From: an uncultured Methanosarcinales archaeon | Lineage (GTDB): Archaea > Nanobdellota > Nanobdellia > Woesearchaeales > CAZOXR01 | Length of the DNA: 27,152 nt | Reading direction: 5' to 3' | Assembly (NCBI GenBank): GCA_964566535.1 | Contig: CAZMIO010000003.1 | Span: 62,001-89,152, forward strand | Translations under genes and position numbers: made by a program | Shown here: in pieces, positions 1,450 to 27,095 of the stretch | How positions within the stretch are numbered: the stretch's first letter is position 1 | How the letters are laid out: every line of letters starts with the position of its first letter | Notes under the pieces: model-generated | Database searches by the model: none | What the model was told of the DNA's origin: nothing | Seen by the model: the letters and a program-made list of their open reading frames with translations, nothing else

Positions 1450-1507
1450 TTTTAGTATACTGCCAATCCTTAAGAACCACAGTTTAACGTACTTTTAACA
1501 AAAGCTA

Positions 1508-1538
1508 CAAAAACAAAAAAGTAAAAAAAAAGAAAAAA
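1508..1538 (-). terminator. Oligo-T archaeal-type terminator
   Basis: Several T-runs on the minus strand (TTTTTTCTTTTTTTTACTTTTTTGTTTTTG) directly after the stop codon at 1539. Confidence 0.6.
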
Positions 1539-3117
1539 TTATTTTTTCTTAACGAAGCTTACTATGATTATAGCACCTACTAAAAGTAATAGGATATCTA
1601 CACCCACAATCAAAGCAATCAGACCAGGTCCTTCAAGCAATCCGCCTATAGAAGCTGTTCCTTCACCGTCGTCTCCACCGTCAGCAGTTGTTGCACCAGT
1701 AAGGTCTATACCGTCACCAGTTAGATCAGTACCTTCATCTCCAGTTCCTTCGTCACCAGTACCTTCATCTCCTGTACCTTCATNNNNNNNNNNNNNNNNN
1801 NNNNNNNNNNNNNNNNNNNNNNNNNNNNNNNNNNNNNNNNNNNNNNNNNNNNNNNNNNNNNNNNNNNNNNNNNNNNNNNNNNNTACCTTCATCTCCAGTT
1901 CCTTCGTCACCAGTACCTTCATCTCCTGTACCTTCATCTCCAGTTCCTTCGTCACCAGTACCTTCATCTCCTGTACCTTCATCGTCTACAGGTGCGTCAA
2001 CAACACATTCTTCAACTGACAATGATACTGTATCACTAGCACTTGTTTTTGCAGATTCAACTTTTACATCAAGTCTGTAGTTACCAGCGTCAGTTCCTTC
2101 TGAAACGAAAAGAGCTACTCTTTTGCTCCATTCAGCATCTGAATCATCTCCTTGGTCAAGTGTTCCTAGTTCGAATTTCTCGTTTATTTCAAGAGCAGTG
2201 TTCTTTATAGTAACAACAACATCGTCTTCTTCCTCTTCTCCGATGTTTAGAGCAGTTACGCTAACTTCTGCATCTCCACTACACTCAACCTCAGTAGGTC
2301 CAAGTGATAGCTTTGTAAAGATTAATTCGTGTGTTTCTTTGTCCCATGCAAAATCAAAGTCAGTTCCAAAATCAAAGTCTAGCTTTTCTTTGCTTTCTTT
2401 GTCTTCAGCCTCTAATTTGATATCTAATGTTACATCATCTTCACTGTCTATCATATAAGGAATTTCGATTTCAATATCTAATTCATCGTCATCCCCAGGT
2501 TCAAGATCACTAAGATCAAACTCTTCATCATAGTCAATATCACTTATCTCTAACGTGAATTTAACGTCTTTAATTTCCCTATTTTCTAAAACATCTTCGC
2601 CGCTTTTGAAAAGGTTTTCAACTTCAATATTAACCTTGATTACAGTTCCAGGTTTTGGATCACTCAATGAATCTCCGGTAATATCTGCTTTTTCATCATC
2701 GCCGTTTATATCAAAGTCAATCTCAGCTTCATCACCAATTCTTAACATGAATGGTTTTCCACCGTATTTATCTCCTCTAACTAAAACGAATATGTTGTCT
2801 TCAACTGGTATAATTCCCATATCAGTTGTAGCAGTCCACTTTTCTCCCTCTAATGACTGGTATACTGTCCAATCTCCAGCAACACCAACATCATCAACAC
2901 TTACAATCTCAGTTTCAGTTACATCTAACTCAACTGTTAATGAACTTTCTTTCAAATAGTCTGTTAAATTTTGTCCTTCAACTACATCACTACAATCTGT
3001 TTCAACTACCAATTCAAAATCACTTTGGTCGTTGGCTATAATACAAAATTCTTCTGTTGCTCCATAAGCTATTGAAGCGAACATAATGCTTAACATCAAT
3101 CCTATTAATATTTTCAT
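1539..3117 (-). CDS. Membrane-anchored S-layer-like surface protein with a degenerate N-terminal DUF4430-like domain, Ig/CARDB-like domains and a DEGTG repeat stalk (spans the N gap)
   Basis: ORFs 1780..3210 and 1539..1982 both read DEGTG repeats on either side of a 100-N gap, so they are one gene. Start taken at ATG 3117 (signal peptide MKILIGLMLSIMFASIAYG, SD GGGGTGG). C-terminal TM helix plus KKK. Paralogous to 3220..4632. Confidence 0.8.
1730..1983 (-). repeat. 15-bp tandem repeat (DEGTG) arranged as a 45-bp higher-order unit; copy number unresolved
   Basis: Plus-strand units accttcatctccagt / tccttcgtcaccagt / accttcatctcctgt recur in fixed order on both sides of the gap. Confidence 0.95.
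1784..1883. other. Assembly gap (100 N)
   Basis: Run of N inside the tandem repeat; the length is probably a placeholder. Confidence 0.98.
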
Positions 3118-3219
3118 TGTTTTTATTTTAACCACCCCGAATGGTTTATTATAGTTTATTATTACCTGTGTAGACAACATCTGGTATTTAAAGTTTTTGC
3201 TATTTTCCAATAGTAACCC

Positions 3220-4632
3220 TCAGCCTTTAAATACTCTCATTATTAGCACAATACCGAGTATTGCCACCAATATATACACAAAAGCATTAATTCCAATCAC
3301 CAATCCTTTGTTGCTAATCCATTTTGATAACTCTCCACCATCTTTAGCAACATTACCAGTAACTCCACTTAGTCCTGAATCATGGTCATGCTCATCAGTC
3401 CCTTCATCATCTGTTAGTCCACTATCAGTTGCATCATCAGTACAGTCCCTAACTCTCAGATTAACAGTTGCATCTTGGCTATATCTGTCAAATCCAGCAT
3501 TAACTAATATGGGGTATATTCCTTCATCTACATCAGAGTCAACATTAATCCTTATAGATGTAGAATATTCACTATCGTCATCAAACGGGTCATCCTCAAG
3601 CTCAAATTCTTTCTTTTCGCTAATCCCTAAATCCTCACTATTAACTTCTAAAACAACCTGTTCTTTTTCTCTTCCCATATTCACTACGTTAATACTAAGA
3701 GAAGTACTTCCAGAACACACAATTTCTTCATCACTTAATTTAACATTTTCAATCCTAACATCATGTTTCTCTTTTTCAACTTCTACTTTATATTTTAGTG
3801 TTTTCTTAAATTCCTTATTGTTTCCGTCCTTCCACTCAATATCTAGAACTAAGTTAAATTCTTTATCTTCAACTTCAATAGGAATCTCAAACTCAACACT
3901 CTGACTTTCATCATCACCAGGCTCTAGATCATCGTAGTCATTATTATTCTCTTCTAGGTCCTCACCATCCTCAATATCCCTTATTGTAGCTGTAATTTCA
4001 ATATCTTCCAAATTTAGGTCATATGCTTCAGCATCATATCTATTCTTTAGCCCAACTTCAAGCTTTAGGCTATCTCCAGGTTTTACATATATAGTATCGC
4101 CTTCACTAAGATCATCACTATCCCCCTCAACCCTAACTTCGATCTCTTCAATGCCTAATGGCTCTGGCTTAACGCCCCATTCACCAAATGCTAATCCAAT
4201 AACATCACCATCTTTAGCACAATAATGTGTAGAACAGGAATCTCCACCATCATAAGCAACCATCATATGGTCCCACTTATCAGTTCCCAATATGTTAAAA
4301 TTCCAAGAGAATTTATCATATTTTTTATTCCATTCACAAGACATTCCTTCTTTCTCAGGTGCATAATCCACATCTTCACCAAGACCATTTATCTTACATA
4401 TTCCATGACCATAATCAGAAGTAATACCGAGAAGAGTCTTCAAGTAATACTCAGACCATGTTATGTCAAGATCCAATTCATTCATTAACTCATACCCATC
4501 TATACCTTCAGGAACATCAACACACTCCGTATCCATATCACCATTCTTATAATCAACAACTACACAAACATTTGCTGCACTAACAGCACTCATCAACATT
4601 AAACCCATTATTATATATACTATTTTTTTCAT
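3220..4632 (-). CDS. Membrane-anchored S-layer-like protein with an N-terminal DUF4430 (transcobalamin C-terminal-like) domain
   Basis: Signal peptide. VCVVVDY..G....ECV....DGYELM...YGHGICKINGLG...WNF...W...KDGDVIGLAFG fits the DUF4430 beta-grasp pattern. Acidic Ig-like domains, then a C-terminal TM helix. Confidence 0.8.
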   Translation of the reverse strand: MKKIVYIIMGLMLMSAVSAANVCVVVDYKNGDMDTECVDVPEGIDGYELMNELDLDITWSEYYLKTLLGITSDYGHGICKINGLGEDVDYAPEKEGMSCEWNKKYDKFSWNFNILGTDKWDHMMVAYDGGDSCSTHYCAKDGDVIGLAFGEWGVKPEPLGIEEIEVRVEGDSDDLSEGDTIYVKPGDSLKLEVGLKNRYDAEAYDLNLEDIEITATIRDIEDGEDLEENNNDYDDLEPGDDESQSVEFEIPIEVEDKEFNLVLDIEWKDGNNKEFKKTLKYKVEVEKEKHDVRIENVKLSDEEIVCSGSTSLSINVVNMGREKEQVVLEVNSEDLGISEKKEFELEDDPFDDDSEYSTSIRINVDSDVDEGIYPILVNAGFDRYSQDATVNLRVRDCTDDATDSGLTDDEGTDEHDHDSGLSGVTGNVAKDGGELSKWISNKGLVIGINAFVYILVAILGIVLIMRVFKG

Positions 4633-4642
4633 TTTTTATACC

Positions 4643-5014
4643 TCATCTTTTCGCAAATCTAAATTCAATCTCATCTCCCCCTTTAACATGATAATTATTT
4701 ACTCCATAAGTTGACATCTTACCATTAACATACATAGGCCACCAATAGCCTGATTCTGCACACACTCCATCAATACACTCAATAGCATTACCGCCCAAAT
4801 GCAACTTAATCTCGTGCTTCACATCCAACACCTGAAAAGCACTAACATCAGGACTTTTCACACTATATTTCTCTTCTGTGCTGTTACCAATAGATACTAT
4901 CGTAAGTTTAACATACTCATTTTGGCTCTTCAGCTGACTTTCCGTCTGGCACCCACTGCTTAAGAGGACCATTCCTAGCACGATCAAGCACATTATCGCA
5001 TATCTCTTTCTCAT
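4643..5014 (-). CDS. DUF4430-domain lipoprotein (putative cobalamin-binding protein)
   Basis: Lipobox LSSGC. SAFQVL...IECIDGV....YWWPMYVNGKMSTYGVNNYHVKGGDEIEFRF is a typical DUF4430 signature. SD GGGAGG. Confidence 0.88.
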   Translation of the reverse strand: MRKRYAIMCLIVLGMVLLSSGCQTESQLKSQNEYVKLTIVSIGNSTEEKYSVKSPDVSAFQVLDVKHEIKLHLGGNAIECIDGVCAESGYWWPMYVNGKMSTYGVNNYHVKGGDEIEFRFAKR

Positions 5015-5633
5015 TAAACCTCCCTACCTTATCTACAAGCTTCTTTCCTAGTGGCAAAAATAATCCGAAAACACTATTGGATATAACATGAGGTATCAAA
5101 AACGGAATTCCAGTAACAAATGCAAGTAAAATATTCCCTCCAACACTGAGGGCAAACCCTATATTAAAGATAGTCTGCAAAATCACCGTAGCAACTAGCA
5201 TAAATCCAACTGTTTCAAACACACTAGCTTTCTTCCGGAGGAATCCTCCTAAAAACCCAGCAATACCATAAGCAATTGCCTGATATATAGTCCATGGACC
5301 TTGTCCACCAAAAACCAAAAAATTTGAAAAATACAATGAACTAATCCCAACCAAAGCCCCTTTCCTCTTTCCAAAAAGCCATCCAGACAGCAAAGCAAAA
5401 AACGTCAATGGTTCAACATTAGGCCAAAACTGCATCCCTACCCTCAAAGCAGAAGCACCACCAACAAACCCGGCCATAACTAACCATTCCTTAAGCTTGA
5501 TTATCTGCAGCTGTTGTAATAATGATCTTAGAGCAAGCCTTTGAGAAGCTTTTGATTTCGTTTCAACTACAACAACCTCTTTTTCTTTCTGTTCTTCTGT
5601 TTCTTTTTCCTTAAGTTTTGTTTCTTGGCTCAT
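4917..5633 (-). CDS. ECF transporter S-component, CbrT-like (cobalamin)
   Basis: About 6 TM segments. LR....PNVEP.......G..FG...G.......SNF....QGPWT.YQ..AYG..G and HVISN motifs. Start taken at ATG 5633 rather than TTG 5642. Context: riboswitch upstream and DUF4430 genes downstream. Confidence 0.88.
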   Translation of the reverse strand: MSQETKLKEKETEEQKEKEVVVVETKSKASQRLALRSLLQQLQIIKLKEWLVMAGFVGGASALRVGMQFWPNVEPLTFFALLSGWLFGKRKGALVGISSLYFSNFLVFGGQGPWTIYQAIAYGIAGFLGGFLRKKASVFETVGFMLVATVILQTIFNIGFALSVGGNILLAFVTGIPFLIPHVISNSVFGLFLPLGKKLVDKVGRFNEKEICDNVLDRARNGPLKQWVPDGKSAEEPK

Positions 5634-5662
5634 ATAACTCAACCTTAATAATAAATTTCAGA

Positions 5663-5774
5663 GAAGTCTTGTTGACAACTCCACGATCACTTTACACTAG
5701 ATAAGTATTCCGGCTTTACGGCTGCGGGTCAGCGACGGATTTGCACCATCCTTTCCTTAACTAATAGAACTAGT
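5663..5774 (-). promoter_or_regulatory. Cobalamin riboswitch, compact form lacking the P6 extension (aptamer about 5696-5774)
   Basis: Minus strand reads ACUAG..AGU UAAGGAAAG GAUGG-UGCAAAU-CCGUC GC-UGACCC-GC AG CCG-UAAAGC-CGG AAU ACU..CUAGU. This gives J3/4, P4 with T-loop, P5 with CCC loop, a short P6 and the B12 box. Candidate P13 at 5673-5689. Confidence 0.85.
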
Positions 5775-5784
5775 ATTCATTATG

Positions 5785-5828
5785 TTATATAAAAATATTA
5801 CTATTAACATTAGAAACTTTTATATAGA
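5785..5828. promoter_or_regulatory. Divergent TATA-box region
   Basis: TTTTTATATAA on the minus strand (5785-5795) and TTTTATATA on the plus strand (5818-5826), the latter about 25 nt before ATG 5851. Confidence 0.6.
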
Positions 5829-5850: not shown

Positions 5851-6405
5851 ATGGCTGAAGATAACGTTTATTTTCTCAAATTTTTGGATGTAGAGCCACC
5901 AGATCATACTGCAGTTCTAGAATTAATGCCAAGAGAAGACGCAGAAACTAAAAGCGGACTTGCAGCAAGAGTTAAAGAACTTAATGGGGCGTGGATGGAT
6001 TTAGGGGTAGTAGTAAACAAAACAGATTCTTATAATGGTCAAATTGATGAGTTATCAGATTCAGCTATTAGGGCAAAAGCAGTAGAATTATATCATGAAG
6101 CTTACGCAATTGTAGACAGATTAGGAATGGGCTGGACCCCAGACCAAACAAAACCTGATTGGGTAAGAAGAGACGAATCATACAACCCTGTTTTAGAGGG
6201 GGTTTTAGACAGAGTTTATGGTATGATTGCTGCTATCCATCAGGCAGAATCAGCAAATCACCAAGTATTAGATGCAATAACTGGCGAAGAATTTAGATAC
6301 AAACCAGAACCTGGTTTCTACACGCCATCAGGAACTATCCATAAACAAGTTCCAGCTGGTCTAACTCCAGTTAGAGATAATTCTTTAAATCCGCAACATA
6401 TTTAA
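5851..6405 (+). CDS. Hypothetical protein
   Basis: 184-aa ORF filling the intergenic space, with its own TATA box. No recognised motif. Confidence 0.75.
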   Translation: MAEDNVYFLKFLDVEPPDHTAVLELMPREDAETKSGLAARVKELNGAWMDLGVVVNKTDSYNGQIDELSDSAIRAKAVELYHEAYAIVDRLGMGWTPDQTKPDWVRRDESYNPVLEGVLDRVYGMIAAIHQAESANHQVLDAITGEEFRYKPEPGFYTPSGTIHKQVPAGLTPVRDNSLNPQHI

Positions 6406-19389: not shown

Positions 19390-19485
19390 GGGCCGGTAGC
19401 TCAGCCTGGAAATCAAAACAGATTGGGGCAATAGAGCACTGCACTTTTAATGCAGTGGTCGCGAGTTCGAATCTCGTCCGGCCCA
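19390..19485 (+). tRNA. tRNA-Lys(TTT) with a D-loop intron (about 19410-19431)
   Basis: Acceptor GGGCCGG/CCGGCCC, anticodon arm CTGCA-CTTTTAA-TGCAG, T arm GCGAG-TTCGAAT-CTCGT. Removing 22 nt restores GCTCAGCCTGGTAGAGC. Confidence 0.95.
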
Positions 19486-19623: not shown

Positions 19624-19872
19624 ATGAAGAAAAAGAAATTACCAGTAATCAGCAAGCACGTTTTGATTCCAAAGCACTCAAAGCTAAGTGACAAGGAAAA
19701 AAAGGAGCTATTAGAGAAATACAACATAACTCTAAATGAGCTTCCAAGAATATCTAAAGAGGACCCAGCAATTATTTCTTTAAGCACAAAACCCGGGGAC
19801 ATAATAAAGATTACAAGAGCCAGCAAGACTGCAGGAACTTCAGCATTCTATAGGGGAATCGTAAATGTATAA
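19624..19872 (+). CDS. rpoH: DNA-directed RNA polymerase subunit H (Rpo5)
   Basis: HVLIPKH, LPRI...DPA, PGDIIKITR.S.TAG...YR. Confidence 0.98.
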   Translation: MKKKKLPVISKHVLIPKHSKLSDKEKKELLEKYNITLNELPRISKEDPAIISLSTKPGDIIKITRASKTAGTSAFYRGIVNV

Positions 19873-21349
19873 ATATTCAAAAACATTAATCCAGAAATAC
19901 TTTGAAGAACAAAGTTTTGTAAATTCAAATATATTATCATTCAACAATTTTATTGAAAACGAACTAAACAAAATTATCGAAGAAAACAAAGAAGTTGTTC
20001 CAACAATAATTCCCCATAACATTGAGTCATTCAAGATACAATTCGATAAAATCTGGGTAACAAAGCCGGAGATAACAGAAGCAGACGGAAGTAAACGGGC
20101 TATCTATCCAATCGAAGCAAGACTAAGAAAACTAACTTATTCTGCGCCTGTCTTCATTGAAGTTAGCGCGCACGTAAATGATGTTCAAAGAGAATCACTA
20201 ACAACTCAAATTGGAAACATTCCTATCATGTTAAAGGGCAACAACTGTCACTTAAATAAACTTGACAAAGATGCTTTAGTAGAGAAAGGGGAAGACCCTG
20301 ATGACCCTGGCGGTTATTTCATAATTAACGGAACAGAAAAAGTTCTAATCAGCGTTGAAGATTTAGCAGCAAATAAACTTCTAGTAGAAAAAAACAAAAC
20401 AGGACCTTCAAAATTTGTCGGAAAACTATTCTCAGAAAGAGGATCATTTAAGATTCCCCATACCATGGAAAAATTAAAGGATGGAATCTTCTACCTAACA
20501 TTTACAAGAGTAAAAAAAATACCTATCCTAGTAATCATAAAAGCACTAGGGATGTTAAAAGATGAAGAAATCACAAAATTCATCTCTTCAGAAAAACATT
20601 ACGATGAAGTTCTGGTTAACTTATATGAATTTGTAAGTATAAAGACAGAAGAAGAAGCACTAGATTATATTGCAAGGAGAGTAGGAATTACTCAGGCAAA
20701 AGAAATCAGAGTTGAAAGGATGAAAGAAATCCTTGATAAATACCTATTGCCAAGATTAGGTATCGAACCAGAAGATAGGATGAATAAAGCTCATAACTTA
20801 TGTAAGATGATCAAGAAATATATCGGCGTAGAAAATGGAGAATTAAATCTTGATGATAAAGATCACTACATGAATAAAAGATTAAAACTAAGTGGAGACC
20901 TTCTAGCTGACTTACTAAGAGTTAATATGAAAGTACTGATAGGAGACCTTCTCTACAATTTCCAAAGAATAGTAAAACGAGGAAAATTCCCATCAATCAA
21001 AGTAATAATCAGAGATAAATTGTTAACATCAAGAATCTACTCATCTATGGCAACAGGTTCATGGGTTGGAGGAAGAAAGGGAATCTCACAAAGAATCCAA
21101 AGATTAAACTTCCTAGAAACATTATCTCACTTACAAAGAGTTGTTAGCCCATTAAGCGCATCTCAGGAAAATTTCGAAGCTAGGGAATTACATTCAACTC
21201 ATCTTGGAAGACTATGTCCGATTGAAACACCAGAAGGAACAAACATTGGTTTAAGAAAAAATCTTTCAATCTTATGTAGCATTTCAAACGACACACCAGA
21301 AGAAGAAATATTAAAATCACTAAAAAATATGAATTTAAAACCGATCTAA
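19865..21349 (+). CDS. rpoB2: DNA-directed RNA polymerase subunit B'' (Rpo2N)
   Basis: P.EARLR.LTYSAP, DPGGYFIINGTEKV, DDKDHY.NKRL and GRLCPIETPEG.NIGL.KNL. Confidence 0.98.
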   Translation: MYKYSKTLIQKYFEEQSFVNSNILSFNNFIENELNKIIEENKEVVPTIIPHNIESFKIQFDKIWVTKPEITEADGSKRAIYPIEARLRKLTYSAPVFIEVSAHVNDVQRESLTTQIGNIPIMLKGNNCHLNKLDKDALVEKGEDPDDPGGYFIINGTEKVLISVEDLAANKLLVEKNKTGPSKFVGKLFSERGSFKIPHTMEKLKDGIFYLTFTRVKKIPILVIIKALGMLKDEEITKFISSEKHYDEVLVNLYEFVSIKTEEEALDYIARRVGITQAKEIRVERMKEILDKYLLPRLGIEPEDRMNKAHNLCKMIKKYIGVENGELNLDDKDHYMNKRLKLSGDLLADLLRVNMKVLIGDLLYNFQRIVKRGKFPSIKVIIRDKLLTSRIYSSMATGSWVGGRKGISQRIQRLNFLETLSHLQRVVSPLSASQENFEARELHSTHLGRLCPIETPEGTNIGLRKNLSILCSISNDTPEEEILKSLKNMNLKPI

Positions 21350-21350
21350 A

Positions 21351-23153
21351 ATGGCAGAAGTATACTTAAATAGCAGATTTGTAGGAACCATTGACAATCC
21401 CGGAGAGTTTGTACAACAGATCAGAGATGAACGTAGAACTAACAAGCTACCTAACAATATTAATGTACATCATGACGTGGAAAGCAATACTGTTCAAATC
21501 GAAACATTAAAGGGAAGGGCAAGAAGACCGTTAATACTTATAAAAAACGGACAACCACTTTTAACAGAAAAACACATTAAACAATTAGAGAAAAATGAAA
21601 TCTCTTGGTCAGACCTAGTAAATGAGGGAGCTATTGAATATCTTGATGCAGCCGAAGAAGAAAATGCTTACGTTGCTTTCTTTGAAAAAGACCTAACTCC
21701 TGAACATACTCACCTTGAAATAACTCCACTAGCAATGACTGGACTAGCAACATCACTAGTACCTTTCGCAAACTTCAACCAGTCAACAAGGTTAAATGCA
21801 GGAAGTAAAAACCAAAAACAAGCTCTAGGATTCTACATTTCAAATTATTCAGTTAGGATGGATATGGATGTAAATATTCTTTATGAACCTCACATTCCGA
21901 TTGTCAGTTCAATAATGCATGGTATATCTGACTATGATAAACACCCTTCTGGTCAAAACCTTGTTGTTGCAATAATGAGTTTCAAAGGATACAACATGGA
22001 AGATTCAATTATTTTAAACAAAGGCGCTATTGATAGAGGGCTTGCAAGAAGCACTTACTACAGGCCAAGTATTTCTGAAGAACTAAGATACTCTGGCGGA
22101 TTAATCGATGAAATTAGCGTTCCTGATAAAGATGTTAAAGGGTATAAAACAGAAAAAGATTACAGATTATTAGATGGAGATGGAATAATCTCTCCGGAAT
22201 CAAAAGTTAAAGAAGGAGATGTTATCATAGGAAAAACATCACCTCCAAGATTCTTATCTTCATTAGATGAATATTCACTAGCATCTTCAACTAGAAGGGA
22301 ATCTTCAGTTTCACTAAAACATGGAGAGAAAGGAATCGTTGACTTTATTTTATTAACTGAAAACGAAGAAGGTAACAAACTAGTCCAAGTAAGGCTAAGA
22401 GACCAAAGAATCCCTGAGATTGGGGACAAATTTACAAGTAGACACGGACAAAAAGGAGTTATTGGGTTAATCGTACCTCAAGCAGACATGCCTTTCTCAG
22501 CTTCTGGAATCCAACCGGATTTAATTTTTTCTCCACACGGAATTCCATCAAGAATGACTATTTCTCACCTAATTGAGCTTATAGCAGGTAAAGTGGGATC
22601 ATTATCATCTAGATACATAGACGGAACAACTTTTGATGCTGAACCAGAAGAAAAACTAAGAGAAGAACTTCTTAGCTTAGGTTTCAGAGAAAACGGAGTA
22701 GAAACACTTTACAATGGACAGACAGGAGAACCGTTCCAAGCTAAAATCTACATCGGAAACATGTACTATTTAAAATTAAAACACATGGTATCTAACAAGA
22801 TTCACAGTAGAGCTCGTGGTCCAATCCAGTTATTAACAAGACAGCCAACAGAAGGACGTGCAAAAGAAGGAGGTCTAAGGTTGGGAGAGATGGAGAAGGA
22901 CACATTCGTAGCCCATGGAGCATCATTATTACTAAAAGAAAGATTCGATTCAGACAAAACAATAGTTCCAGTTTGTGAAAACTGTGGAATCATTGCAATC
23001 AAAGACGAATTCAAGAATAAGGCATATTGTCCAATTTGTGGAGACAATGTTGAGATATCAGATATCGAAATATCTTACGCATTTAAGCTTATACTTGATG
23101 AATTCAAGTCATTATGCATACATTCAAAACTAGTACTTGAAAAACAATACTAA
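21351..23153 (+). CDS. rpoB1: DNA-directed RNA polymerase subunit B' (Rpo2C)
   Basis: GYNMEDS, GDKFTSRHGQKG, PHGIPSRMT, KLKHMV, RQPTEGRAKEGGLRLGEME and a Zn ribbon. Confidence 0.98.
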   Translation: MAEVYLNSRFVGTIDNPGEFVQQIRDERRTNKLPNNINVHHDVESNTVQIETLKGRARRPLILIKNGQPLLTEKHIKQLEKNEISWSDLVNEGAIEYLDAAEEENAYVAFFEKDLTPEHTHLEITPLAMTGLATSLVPFANFNQSTRLNAGSKNQKQALGFYISNYSVRMDMDVNILYEPHIPIVSSIMHGISDYDKHPSGQNLVVAIMSFKGYNMEDSIILNKGAIDRGLARSTYYRPSISEELRYSGGLIDEISVPDKDVKGYKTEKDYRLLDGDGIISPESKVKEGDVIIGKTSPPRFLSSLDEYSLASSTRRESSVSLKHGEKGIVDFILLTENEEGNKLVQVRLRDQRIPEIGDKFTSRHGQKGVIGLIVPQADMPFSASGIQPDLIFSPHGIPSRMTISHLIELIAGKVGSLSSRYIDGTTFDAEPEEKLREELLSLGFRENGVETLYNGQTGEPFQAKIYIGNMYYLKLKHMVSNKIHSRARGPIQLLTRQPTEGRAKEGGLRLGEMEKDTFVAHGASLLLKERFDSDKTIVPVCENCGIIAIKDEFKNKAYCPICGDNVEISDIEISYAFKLILDEFKSLCIHSKLVLEKQY

Positions 23154-23210: not shown

Positions 23211-25952
23211 ATGGCAGAAGAAAAACTAACTGAAGAGAAAAAAGTTGAAGAAGTTAAGGAAGAAGTAAAGGAATCTCCTAAAACAGAAACTAAAGAAGAG
23301 ACCAAAGAAACAACAACTGAAGAAAAAGAAATTGAACGTGTAGAACCAGTTGAGAGATATGTTTCAAAGAAAGTAAGTAGTATTACATTCTCAATTTTTT
23401 CACCAAAGATGATAAAGAAGATGACTTCTGCAAAGATAGTCACTCCAGAACTTTATGACAAAGAAGGATACCCAGTTGACGGTGGCCTAATGGACATAAG
23501 ATTAGGGGTTATTGATCCTGGTTTAAAATGTAAAACCTGTGGTTCAAAGCTAAAAGAATGCATCGGTCACTTTGGTTATATTGAATTAGCAAGGCCAATC
23601 GTCCATATCAAATTCGCAAGTATACTCCTAAACATATTAAGATGTACATGTAGGGAATGTGGAAAAGTCTTAGTTCCAAGTAATAAAGTCGAGGAAATTA
23701 ACGAAAAGTTAGATTCAATCGAGAAAGAAAAAGGGCTAGAAGACAGAAGAAAAGCAATCAAACCAATTATTGCAAAGATGAAAACAGTAAATAAATGCCC
23801 CCACTGTAAAGCAAGACAATATAAAGTTACAATTGACAAACCAACAACATTCGTTGAAAATGAAAAAAGATTAAGTCCTATTGAAGTTAGGGCAAGAATG
23901 GAGAGAGTCCCAGATGAAGATGTTGAACTCTTTGGGCTTAAATCACAATTTGCAAGACCTGAGTGGATGATTCTTACAATAATGTTAATCCCTCCAGTTA
24001 CAATGAGGCCTTCTATCACTCTAGAATCAGGGGAAAGAAGCGAAGACGACTTGACTCATAAACTTGGAGATATCGTAAGAATAAACCAAAGACTGTTCGA
24101 AAACATAAATGCAGGAGCACCAGAAATAATCATAGAGGACTTATGGGATCTTTTACAGTATCACATTACAACATTCTTCGATAATGCAGTTTCACAGCTT
24201 CCTCCAGCTAGACACAGATCAGGACAGCCGTTAAAGACGATTACCGAAAGAATCAAGAGTAAGGAAGGAAGAATCAGGCACAATTTAGCAGGTAAAAGGA
24301 CAAATTTCAGTGCAAGAACAGTTATTAGTCCAGACCCAATGCTTGATCTAAATGAAGTAGGAGTCCCCGAAATCATCGCATCAAAATTATCAGTTCCGGA
24401 GAGAGTTAACGAATGGAACATGAATTACTTAAAGGAGTTCATCAAAAACGGACCTTCAAAATACCCTGGAGCAAACTATGTAGTGCGACCAGACGGAAAA
24501 AAGAAAAAGATTACAGACGAAACAAAAGAAGCAACCATTGAAGAAATTCAGCCAGGATACATGATTGAAAGACACCTCTTAGATGGAGACATTGCAATCT
24601 TTAACAGGCAGCCTAGCCTACACAGAATGTCAATGATGTGTCATAGAATTAGAGTTCTACCTGGAAAAACCTTAAGGCTAAACCCTGGAGTTTGTCACCC
24701 TTACAACGCTGATTTCGATGGAGACGAAATGAATCTTCACATTCCACAAACAGAAGAAGCAAGAGCAGAAGCAGAAATTCTGATGGAAGTCCAAACCCAA
24801 CTTATCTCTCCAAAGTATGGATTAAGTGTTATTGGATGTGTACAGGATGCTATCTCTGGTAATTACCTTTTAACAAAAGAACTAAGTTTCTCAAGACCAG
24901 ATGCAATATCTGTACTAAATGCAATTGGCGTTACTGAGTTTTCAAAATTACCTAAAAAAGAAACAATAACTGGAAAAGAAGTATTCTCAACACTAATCCC
25001 TGATGATTTTAACTTCACAGGTAAAGCAAGACATTACGAACAGGAGTTAAGCAGAGAAGAAAACGTTAAACTAGATACTTATGTACAGATTAAAGACGGA
25101 CAGCTTATTAGTGGAGTAATGGATAGAGCAAACTTAGGTGAAGGGTCAGGATTATTACTAAGAAACATTCACAAAAAATATGGAAAAGAGTTTACGTTAG
25201 ACATGTTAAGTAAATTATTCAGATTAGGAATAGAAGTTCTTCTAAGAACTGGGTTCACAACAGCAATATCAGACACTGACCTTCCAGAAGACGCAAAACT
25301 AAAAGTTAGCGAAACACTTGATGATGCAAGAAAAGATGTAAATAATCTTATTGACTCATACAAAAACAATAAACTAGAAGCATTCCCCGGAAAAACATTA
25401 AGGGAAACATTAGAACTAAAGATTTTAGAAGCCCTAAACAAAGCAAGAAACGAAACAGGAGCTTTAGTTGCAAAACATTCCGATAAAAAGACTCATACAA
25501 TGGTCATGGCTAACAGCGGAGCAAGAGGAAATCTATTAAACCTAGCTCAGATGGCAGCTTGTGTAGGACAGCAAGCAATGAGGGGTAAAAGAATCGAGAA
25601 AGGGTACAAAGGCAGAACATTATCATGTTTCAAGAAAGACGATTTCAGTCCAGAAGCACACGGATTCATCAGTAACGGGTTCAAAACAGGTCTTGACCCA
25701 CATGAATTCTTTTTTTCAGCAATAACTGGACGAGACTCACTGATGGATACTGCATTAAGAACTCCTAAGTCAGGTTACTTATATAGGCGTCTTGCAAATG
25801 CAATGCAAGATCTTAAAGTTGAATATGATCACACAGTAAGGGATACAGCATCAAAAATCATCCAGTTTAAATACGGAGAAGACGGAATGGATGTTTCAAA
25901 ATCAGAAGACGGAATATTAAATATAAAGAGAATAATTAAAACTATTACTTAG
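23211..25952 (+). CDS. rpoA1: DNA-directed RNA polymerase subunit A' (Rpo1N)
   Basis: C..C......C.GHFG.IELA, FNRQPSLHR and the catalytic YNADFDGDEMN; also has a ~45-aa E/K/T-rich N-terminal extension. Confidence 0.99.
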   Translation: MAEEKLTEEKKVEEVKEEVKESPKTETKEETKETTTEEKEIERVEPVERYVSKKVSSITFSIFSPKMIKKMTSAKIVTPELYDKEGYPVDGGLMDIRLGVIDPGLKCKTCGSKLKECIGHFGYIELARPIVHIKFASILLNILRCTCRECGKVLVPSNKVEEINEKLDSIEKEKGLEDRRKAIKPIIAKMKTVNKCPHCKARQYKVTIDKPTTFVENEKRLSPIEVRARMERVPDEDVELFGLKSQFARPEWMILTIMLIPPVTMRPSITLESGERSEDDLTHKLGDIVRINQRLFENINAGAPEIIIEDLWDLLQYHITTFFDNAVSQLPPARHRSGQPLKTITERIKSKEGRIRHNLAGKRTNFSARTVISPDPMLDLNEVGVPEIIASKLSVPERVNEWNMNYLKEFIKNGPSKYPGANYVVRPDGKKKKITDETKEATIEEIQPGYMIERHLLDGDIAIFNRQPSLHRMSMMCHRIRVLPGKTLRLNPGVCHPYNADFDGDEMNLHIPQTEEARAEAEILMEVQTQLISPKYGLSVIGCVQDAISGNYLLTKELSFSRPDAISVLNAIGVTEFSKLPKKETITGKEVFSTLIPDDFNFTGKARHYEQELSREENVKLDTYVQIKDGQLISGVMDRANLGEGSGLLLRNIHKKYGKEFTLDMLSKLFRLGIEVLLRTGFTTAISDTDLPEDAKLKVSETLDDARKDVNNLIDSYKNNKLEAFPGKTLRETLELKILEALNKARNETGALVAKHSDKKTHTMVMANSGARGNLLNLAQMAACVGQQAMRGKRIEKGYKGRTLSCFKKDDFSPEAHGFISNGFKTGLDPHEFFFSAITGRDSLMDTALRTPKSGYLYRRLANAMQDLKVEYDHTVRDTASKIIQFKYGEDGMDVSKSEDGILNIKRIIKTIT

Positions 25953-27095
<1,143 letters not shown>

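Follow-up and report, generated by a model that had tools for sequence, protein, structure and literature searches.

The closest described counterparts of the element reported here are the class-II cobalamin riboswitches. Weinberg et al. 2010 (PMC2864571) described the AdoCbl-variant family from sequences given as 'Marine', with no host named in the part of that paper dealing with the family, and the env8 hydroxocobalamin riboswitch is a class-II member studied by Polaski et al. 2016 (PMC5028336), where the cobalamin clan is characterised by an L13 loop presented on a hairpin and an ever-present unpaired base. For Archaea, McCown et al. 2017 (PMC5473149) give thiamine pyrophosphate and fluoride riboswitches and rare flavin mononucleotide, Mg2+-I and guanidine-II examples; cobalamin is not among the classes named in the article text. 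Here we analysed a 27,152-nt stretch of DNA (contig CAZMIO010000003.1, positions 62,001-89,152, assembly GCA_964566535.1), called the window below and used for all coordinates of the locus. It carries on the minus strand, in front of a gene for a DUF6580 membrane protein, a leader that we consider likely to be a genuine cobalamin riboswitch of class II, native to an archaeon of the Woesearchaeales (DPANN) and working by the mechanism proposed below.

The leader shares with RF01689 (the Rfam family AdoCbl-II, formerly AdoCbl-variant) and env8 a P3-P6 four-way junction, the J3/4 GGAAA, a T-loop-like L4, a B12 box and the lack of a P6 extension. As in the class-II RNAs covered by the sources cited, a hairpin carries L13, and the kissing contact of L13 with L5 leaves one base or more unpaired. 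It differs in its archaeal host and TATA-type promoter, in a transcript that probably starts at the closing helix without the outer P1, in a P13 hairpin whose 3′ strand is GUCA or GUCC and not a ribosome-binding site, and in an extra, competing hairpin that ends in UUCUCU. With the archaeal riboswitches surveyed in the article text of McCown et al. it has in common a bacterial-type aptamer in an archaeal 5′ leader; the cobalamin class sets it apart from them. A further comparison is with the cobT riboswitch of Alkalihalobacillus halodurans, presented in the text of Procknow et al. 2023 (PMC10327014) as the only known activating corrinoid riboswitch. In both, a P13 stabilised by a kissing loop is incompatible with a downstream hairpin, but cobT, as described there, combines a bacterial intrinsic terminator with a biosynthetic gene, whereas here putative uptake genes follow and there is no U-tract.

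Full-text searches of mainly open-access articles turned up no cobalamin riboswitch described from Archaea or DPANN, and automated genome annotation may already flag such archaeal matches. New here are a predicted start site calibrated on the genome itself, the covariation of L5-L13 and P13, and the contrast with bacterial-type leaders. Riboswitches abound in bacteria, but archaeal ones have been reported for a handful of classes only, and the step from ligand to expression in Archaea is poorly understood. The present locus would place an aptamer class that is well studied, down to its structures and ligands, naturally behind archaeal promoters, in a platform that keeps the kissing-loop sensor contact and drops the bacterial read-out by a ribosome-binding site in P13. 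It would offer a compact, testable system for riboswitch read-out by the archaeal transcription and translation machinery, and would mark, in DPANN archaea whose genomes are reduced and which rely on the vitamin of others, an operon for B12 scavenging (DUF6580, DUF4430 and a surface protein). The archaeal and bacterial aptamer versions found side by side in metagenomes bear on the question of inter-domain transfer.

The aptamer and its predicted promoter

Comparison of the window with 4227 Rfam families using Infernal gave a match to RF01689 at 39.8 bits, above the gathering score of 36.5, with an E-value of 2.2e-6 (2.8e-8 when the whole genome was searched). This match is the sole one to the family in the 1.45-Mb genome. 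The elements of the aptamer and of its promoter are the following.

5695-5775, minus strand: AdoCbl-II aptamer, matching the full-length RF01689 model (1-81; Infernal/Rfam)
5758-5751, minus strand: J3/4, AAGGAAAG (RF01689 alignment)
5734-5750, minus strand: P4, GAUGG/CCGUC, with T-loop-like L4 UGCAAAU (RF01689 alignment)
5721-5733, minus strand: P5, GCUG/CAGC, with loop L5 ACCCG at 5725-5729 (RF01689 alignment and fold)
5721-5710, minus strand: P6, CCG/CGG, 3 bp with a 6-nt loop and no extension (RF01689 alignment)
5715-5705, minus strand: B12-box-like AGCCGGAAUAC (RF01689 alignment)
5756-5766, minus strand: 5′ strand of the closing helix, UAUUAGUUAAG, pairing with 5695-5705 (CUUAUCUAGUG) in the minimum-energy fold
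5786-5793, minus strand: TATA box TTTATATA, overlapping TTTTTATA at 5788-5795 and preceded by an A-rich stretch resembling a B recognition element
5761-5765, minus strand: predicted transcription start, approximately 5763, from the TATA 3′ end at 5786 and the calibrated 22-nt spacing

The conserved core of class II (J3/4 GGAAA, P4/L4, P5, short P6, B12 box and closing helix) is present, and there is no peripheral P6 extension. The initial annotation had proposed a class-II type cobalamin aptamer at 5663-5774. The above-threshold RF01689 match, together with covariation among relatives, bears this out, and J3/4, P4 with UGCAAAU, P5, the 3-bp P6 without extension and the B12 box were all found in the model alignment. 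The proposed interval also covers part of the expression platform. A closing stem AGU/ACU, also proposed, is absent from the RF01689 alignment, in which the closing helix is made up of UAAG/CUUA and Rfam's UACUAG/CUAGUG; in the minimum-energy fold (RNAfold) it is one continuous UAUUAG.UUAAG/CUUA.UCUAGUG.

The position of the transcript's 5′ end was predicted from the genome's own promoters. Among 1175 long open reading frames (ORFs), the distance from TATA-like box to ATG peaks sharply at 22 nt (123 cases), followed by 23 nt (58) and 24 nt (50), which makes 231 box occurrences at 22-24 nt; 244 of the ORFs have a box at 21-25 nt. Such a peak is the signature of leaderless mRNAs, and a large share of the genes would accordingly be predicted to be leaderless, the remaining ones having SD-like (Shine-Dalgarno-like) words 9-13 nt upstream. 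Because the TATA spacing is calibrated on these leaderless genes, the riboswitch transcript is expected to start near 5763. The outer P1 strand of the Rfam model (5775-5770) would then probably not be transcribed, the region from approximately 5766 to 5695 likely would be, and the closing helix would take the continuous form given above. Thus, the outermost stem ACUAG/CUAGU of the earlier proposal probably lies upstream of the start, and the aptamer probably begins at the very 5′ end of the mRNA. The archaeal TATA promoter proposed at the same time agrees with the data, as the box stands at the spacing that marks predicted transcription starts throughout the genome. It is also a feature of the relatives described below: a perfect [CT]TT[AT][AT]A[AT]A ends 22-32 nt before AAGGAAA in 24 of 26 archaeal-type leaders, the exceptions being L103 (35-37 nt) and L004 (none). 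In the bacterial-type leaders that the same pattern scan recovered, inspection by eye reveals TTGACA and -10 boxes upstream.

On the opposite strand, a divergent gene for a 184-aa protein with no Pfam match occupies 5851-6405 (+), and AGAAAC-TTTTATATA at 5812-5826 (+) is positioned for its leaderless start. Two archaeal promoters (5786-5793 and 5812-5826) therefore stand back to back, at most about 45 bp apart.

Host, recurrence and covariation

The genome was assembled from a metagenome (1.45 Mb in 37 contigs, 91% complete, 0.09% contamination). The window contains two Rpb2-type ORFs at 19865-23153 and two Rpb1-type ORFs at 23211-27095, that is, split RNA polymerase B''/B' and A'/A'' genes on one contig with the aptamer and approximately 14 kb from it, so the contig is archaeal. 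A TrmB regulator and an archaeal-type prolyl-tRNA synthetase are also encoded in the window, and archaeal small- and large-subunit rRNAs are present in the genome. These polymerase and rRNA genes support the archaeal host named by the initial annotation, and its assignment to a DPANN lineage agrees with the labels of related records: 60 loci with DUF6580 relatives come almost all from Woesearchaeota, Nanoarchaeota or Nanoarchaeia, with some records auto-labelled 'Methanosarcinales' and one Peribacteria. Housekeeping neighbours are retained at the riboswitch locus of relatives (prs in genome G050, proS in genome G018), which speaks against mis-assembly.

The aptamer recurs in related archaeal genomes and in metagenome contigs, and the leaders were sorted into an archaeal and a bacterial type. 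At E ≤0.001, RF01689 matches occurred in 5 of 61 genomes when one was sampled per family and in 4 of the 151 genomes sampled across the phylum, every one of the four from the same order. A pattern scan of metagenome contigs returned 63 loci, many of them chance matches inside coding sequence, and 15 archaeal-type leaders. Of these 15, found by RNA pattern alone, 11 precede DUF6580; the others precede a 175-aa acidic protein (one), a relative of the 496-aa protein of locus L007 (one) and unidentified ORFs (two). When 20 archaeal-type leaders were tested with Rfam, 17 scored over the RF01689 threshold, two lower (33.6 and 32.3 bits), and L060 was not reported.

Covariation in homologous leaders, which the initial annotation had asked for, was found both in the 15 distinct archaeal sequences and in a set of 41 distinct sequences that includes the bacterial type. 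In the archaeal set 86.9% of the cells pair, against 76.2% after shuffling, in alignments fitted to the model and hence biased towards it; slid-partner controls fall to 22-48% paired. The covariation score of 0.265, compared with 0.080 for shuffled alignments, was reached by none of 500 shuffles. P4 shows changes on both sides at all five of its pairs, in the archaeal set as in the larger one, where 10 of 15 pairs have both sides changed. The inner four pairs of the closing helix covary, the outer one of these four being seen as UA, CG, UG, AU and GC, and in the close relative L108 the U.U mismatch of this helix is replaced by U-A. Covariation backs the helices other than P6, which is invariant in all 41 sequences and so gives no such evidence.

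Three variations on the arrangement were noticed among the relatives. L005 (G050:C3) has tandem copies of promoter and riboswitch approximately 780 bp apart (712-804 and 1492-1584, minus strand), the first before a 175-aa acidic protein and the second before DUF6580; the near-identity of their promoters and 5′ parts points to a local duplication. L006 (G018:C1, 1501-1588, plus strand) carries a small hairpin, AUCCC AUUUA GGGAA, in the P6 loop, a miniature P6 extension. In the bacterial-type metagenome contigs L073, L076 and L089, a second aptamer match lies on the opposite strand about 50-60 nt away, giving divergent cobalamin riboswitches.

Expression platform and direction of regulation

Downstream of the aptamer, the archaeal-type leaders share the platform consensus ...GGAUCG(U/A)GGAG-NN-GUCC(G)-loop-(C)GGAY-UU-CUCU, with an AUG 7-28 nt later. 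In the window it comprises the following features.

5673-5689, minus strand: P13 hairpin (fold A), UGAU[CGUGGAGUU]GUCA (consensus GGAU[CG.GGAGNN]GUCC), stem 5686-5689 with 5673-5676 and loop L13 at 5677-5685
5660-5682, minus strand: competing hairpin (fold B), GGAG-UU-GUC[AACAA]GAC-UU-CUCU, with 5679-5682 pairing with 5660-5663 (minimum-energy fold of the platform)
5631-5646, minus strand: Shine-Dalgarno (SD)-like AAGGU (5642-5646) and likely start AUG (5631-5633), from the sequence and the genome-wide SD spacing

P13 is GGAU/GUCC in most relatives. Relative to the common G-C and U.G pairs, compensatory changes are seen in the window (U-A), in L123 (A-U) and in L004 and L092 (U-A). In the window, L13 pairs with L5 as CG-(U)-GG with CCCG. 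The same pairing, CCCG with CG.GG, is seen in 22 of 24 archaeal-type leaders; in the other two, L006 and L059, L5 is UGCCG and the L13 loop CGAGCA (GCCG with CG.GC). All 24 form 4-5 Watson-Crick pairs with a bulge of 1-2 nt. Bacterial-type leaders pair GUCCG with CGAGAC (UCCG with CG.GA) in four of five cases, L074 having only two pairs, and two bacterial-type leaders pair an L5 GACCG with CGGAAAUC (ACCG with CGG...UC). Position 2 of L5 thus covaries with L13 across all four Watson-Crick combinations, and L5-L13 form on average 4.03 Watson-Crick pairs, against 3.05 when the loops are swapped between leaders. The P13 of L006 and L059, CCU[CGAGCA]AGG, resembles that of bacterial-type leaders.

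Fold B uses part of the same bases, and it and P13/L13 are mutually exclusive. Its energy in the window is -9.4 kcal/mol (z -1.52; 12 of 200 shuffles equal or better), and in most of 22 related leaders it is likewise the platform's fold of lowest energy, at roughly -8 to -17 kcal/mol; the energies of a forced fold A leave out the window and L080, where the constraint was not enforced. The UUCUC of the 3′ strand is retained even though its partner shifts, from GGAG in most leaders to the inner GAG in L060, L092 and L104.

We propose the following mechanism. An archaeal TATA promoter would start the mRNA a few bases from the closing helix of the aptamer, and the P3-P6 four-way junction, lacking a P6 extension, would bind a cobalamin. 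The bound ligand would stabilise the L5-L13 kissing contact of the short downstream hairpin P13, as in the bacterial relatives, and the locked P13 would keep its 3′ strand and the GGAG of L13 out of the more stable hairpin that ends in UUCUCU. The switch would govern a B12-scavenging operon that encodes the DUF6580 membrane protein, a DUF4430 lipoprotein and a surface protein. B12 would rather probably lower expression of the operon. The layout of L082, which has no fold B and an AUG only 3 nt after P13, fits repression by a locked P13. As to how the signal is read out, we lean tentatively, and without strong grounds, towards ribosome access or translation.

In the window AAGGU stands 12 nt before AUG 5633 and 27 nt beyond P13, which itself ends 39 nt from the AUG. 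The genome-wide distribution of SD-like words peaks 9-13 nt before ATG, the 16S rRNA end being GGAUCACCUCCU, and an SD-like site is missing in many related leaders. In the bacterial relatives that have been studied the ribosome-binding site is hidden in P13, and in our bacterial-type leaders the 3′ strand of P13 carries AGGAG, followed by a U-run and AUG.

Several results weigh against the proposed reading. P13 does not sequester a ribosome-binding site in the window: its 3′ strand is GUCA, and AAGGU lies outside it. The modelled accessibility (unpaired probability) of the start region (-15 to +5 of the AUG) in 20 leaders averages 0.56 and 0.51 in the two folds, with no consistent direction for the AUG itself, and lends no support to simple sequestration by the released strand. 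The compensatory change of L5-L13 within Archaea is confined to two related leaders, L006 and L059, and amounts to about one event. As for the aptamer itself, the Rfam check that had been suggested for both cobalamin families turned out positive for AdoCbl-II, but the classical AdoCbl riboswitch family Cobalamin (RF00174) scored 29.4 bits, under its gathering score of 31.5. Nor is the aptamer more stable than shuffled sequences (z +0.55; 137 of 200 shuffles equal or better); this is common for junction RNAs stabilised through tertiary contacts, and is no support either. Finally, the distribution is patchy: at E ≤0.001, RF01689 matches occurred in 12 of 151 genomes of the order (8 over the cut-off), and a covariance model trained on ten archaeal copies detected it at 12 of 60 woesearchaeal DUF6580 loci. 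Regulation by the aptamer is thus dispensable, or the aptamer is often lost or transferred.

The alternative that survives best keeps repression but has it read out by the freed UUCUCU strand, which would be used by a termination or cleavage factor of the aCPSF1/FttA type or by an RNase. Conservation of UUCUC where the pairing partner changes (L060, L092 and L104) is in line with such a role, as is the fact that most leaders have no consistent sequestration of an SD or AUG. The tract, however, holds just 2-3 consecutive U, and TTTCTC is barely enriched after genes, occurring in 19 of 578 downstream regions compared with 8 on the opposite strand. We therefore rank exposure of the strand, leading to termination or decay, below ribosome access and regard it as somewhat unlikely. 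Its most specific version, in which archaea have rewired a bacterial-type sensor so that an exposed UUCUCU strand and not a hidden ribosome-binding site triggers aCPSF1/FttA-type termination or cleavage, is more doubtful still. If true, Archaea would have their first example of factor-dependent termination under the control of a riboswitch, and archaeal expression platforms their first mechanistic model.

The sign of regulation could also be the opposite of the repression proposed here. As an ON switch, the competing hairpin would be inhibitory, either terminator-like or masking the region upstream of the AUG, and a B12-locked P13 would act as anti-hairpin, so that B12 induces the operon. Exclusion of a downstream hairpin by P13 is the architecture of the activating A. 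halodurans riboswitch as described in PMC10327014. Many leaders have only 7-12 nt from the end of the competing hairpin to the AUG, with a pyrimidine run after the hairpin. The corresponding distance in the window, L108, L103 and L025, however, is 23-28 nt. As a U-tract for Archaea, UUCUCU is poor and has no T-run behind it, and the platform is followed by neither a T-run nor a U-tract. Feedback repression is the usual logic for vitamin uptake genes, and the absence of a competing hairpin from L082 is again in agreement with it. We judge an ON switch to be quite unlikely. It is highly improbable that the match is accidental, that it marks a decayed relic, or that bacterial DNA was placed in an archaeal bin by mis-assembly: the score is merely 3.3 bits over the cut-off, the genome is metagenome-assembled and the distribution in relatives is patchy, but against this stand the E-value of 2.2e-6, structure and platform conserved with covariation in 26 archaeal-type leaders, archaeal RNA polymerase genes about 14 kb off on the same contig, an archaeal promoter at the calibrated spacing and the prs/proS synteny in other genomes.

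Two further ideas about the platform were rejected. An upstream small ORF starting from GUG or UUG in or after L13 is, as judged by eye, not general to the leaders: the GUG is lost through the U/A variation, and a start codon is missing from several spacers. Pairing of UUUCU with the GGAAA of J3/4 does not fit the window's ACUUCUCU.

Downstream genes and B12 economy

The leader is followed by three genes that would make up the regulated operon.

4917-5642, minus strand: DUF6580 membrane protein with the fold of an energy-coupling factor (ECF) S-component, CbrT-like (Pfam PF20221, E 2.1e-10)
4643-5014, minus strand: DUF4430 protein with a lipobox-like N-terminus, LSSGC (Pfam PF14478, E 4.9e-11)
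3220-4632, minus strand: acidic surface protein of 470 aa, with signal peptide and a membrane anchor at the C-terminus (ORF)

The DUF6580 ORF is called from a TTG at 5642, its likely start being the AUG at 5633. Besides PF20221 it has weak Pfam matches to ECF S-component families. A profile of 43 DUF6580 relatives compared with the Protein Data Bank (PDB) gave 6fnp_A as the best match (E 1.4e-4 over 148 profile positions). Structure 6FNP is the ECF-CbrT vitamin B12 transporter of Lactobacillus delbrueckii, as reported in the text of Santos et al. 2018 (PMC5997447); that chain A is CbrT itself is deduced from the chain length. The AlphaFold2 model of the protein (mean predicted local distance difference test score, pLDDT, 89.2) has a long basic N-terminal helix, and in a Foldseek search with this model all 16 of the 16 top-ranked matches were ECF S-components, with template modelling scores up to 0.77 by target length and E-values all at least 0.013. 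The CbrT-like gene that the initial annotation had placed downstream is thereby upheld by the Pfam family, the 6FNP match and the predicted S-component fold. The similarity to ECF-CbrT is remote, and differences from it are the long basic helix, the DUF4430 lipoprotein and surface protein as partners, and the location of EcfT: a bioY-ecfA-ecfT cluster about 80 kb from the locus holds the only EcfT found in the genome.

The weak best PDB match of the DUF4430 protein is to the C-terminal part of transcobalamin-1 (E 0.029), and a DUF4430 homologue adjoins DUF6580 in 35 of 64 related loci. The N-terminal 170 residues of the surface protein recur next to DUF6580 in 41 of the same 64 loci, and in L004 this N-domain continues within the same ORF as the DUF6580 domain. 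Together, the three genes are a conserved set and may constitute an operon for B12 scavenging. The organism encodes B12-dependent enzymes: six ORFs with a B12-binding domain are present, of which all three that were checked also carry a radical SAM domain, and one ribonucleotide reductase just reaches the NrdJ_Z cut-off, scoring 401.1 bits where 399.95 are required. A PduO-type adenosyltransferase was not found in the 91%-complete genome.

The DUF6580 and DUF4430 ORFs overlap by 98 nt (4917-5014) in different frames. The DUF6580 tail is poorly conserved, with pLDDT below 50 at residues 234-239, which suggests that one of the two gene boundaries is mis-called or that the genes are translationally coupled. 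Downstream of the 470-aa protein lies a further acidic surface protein with GTGDE repeats (1780-3210, minus strand), called at 476 aa; its start looks paralogous to that of the 470-aa protein, and its ORF enters a scaffold gap (100 N, 1784-1883). Two other ideas about the encoded proteins were dropped. A relationship of the surface protein to DUF4430 gave a best BLASTP E-value of 4.9 and no Pfam match, and a shared basic N-terminal peptide was judged by eye: DUF6580, L082 and the proteins of 175 aa and 156 aa have a Lys-rich start, which L007, L095 and L103 lack.

In L007 the gene behind the leader (191-1678) encodes a 496-aa protein of an unannotated family, with no Pfam match and 39% identity over 72 aa to the ORF of L103. 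L007 and L103 represent a second protein family directly behind archaeal-type cobalamin riboswitches.

Away from the riboswitch, the window contains a tRNA-Lys(UUU) gene at 19390-19485 (+). ARAGORN reported no tRNA in the window, and the Rfam tRNA model covers only the 3′ part of the gene (19425-19485, 34.1 bits). The D-loop holds an insert of approximately 20 nt (GGGCCGGTAGCTCAGCCTGG ... AATAGAGCAC...CCGGCCCA), which is probably a non-canonical archaeal tRNA intron.

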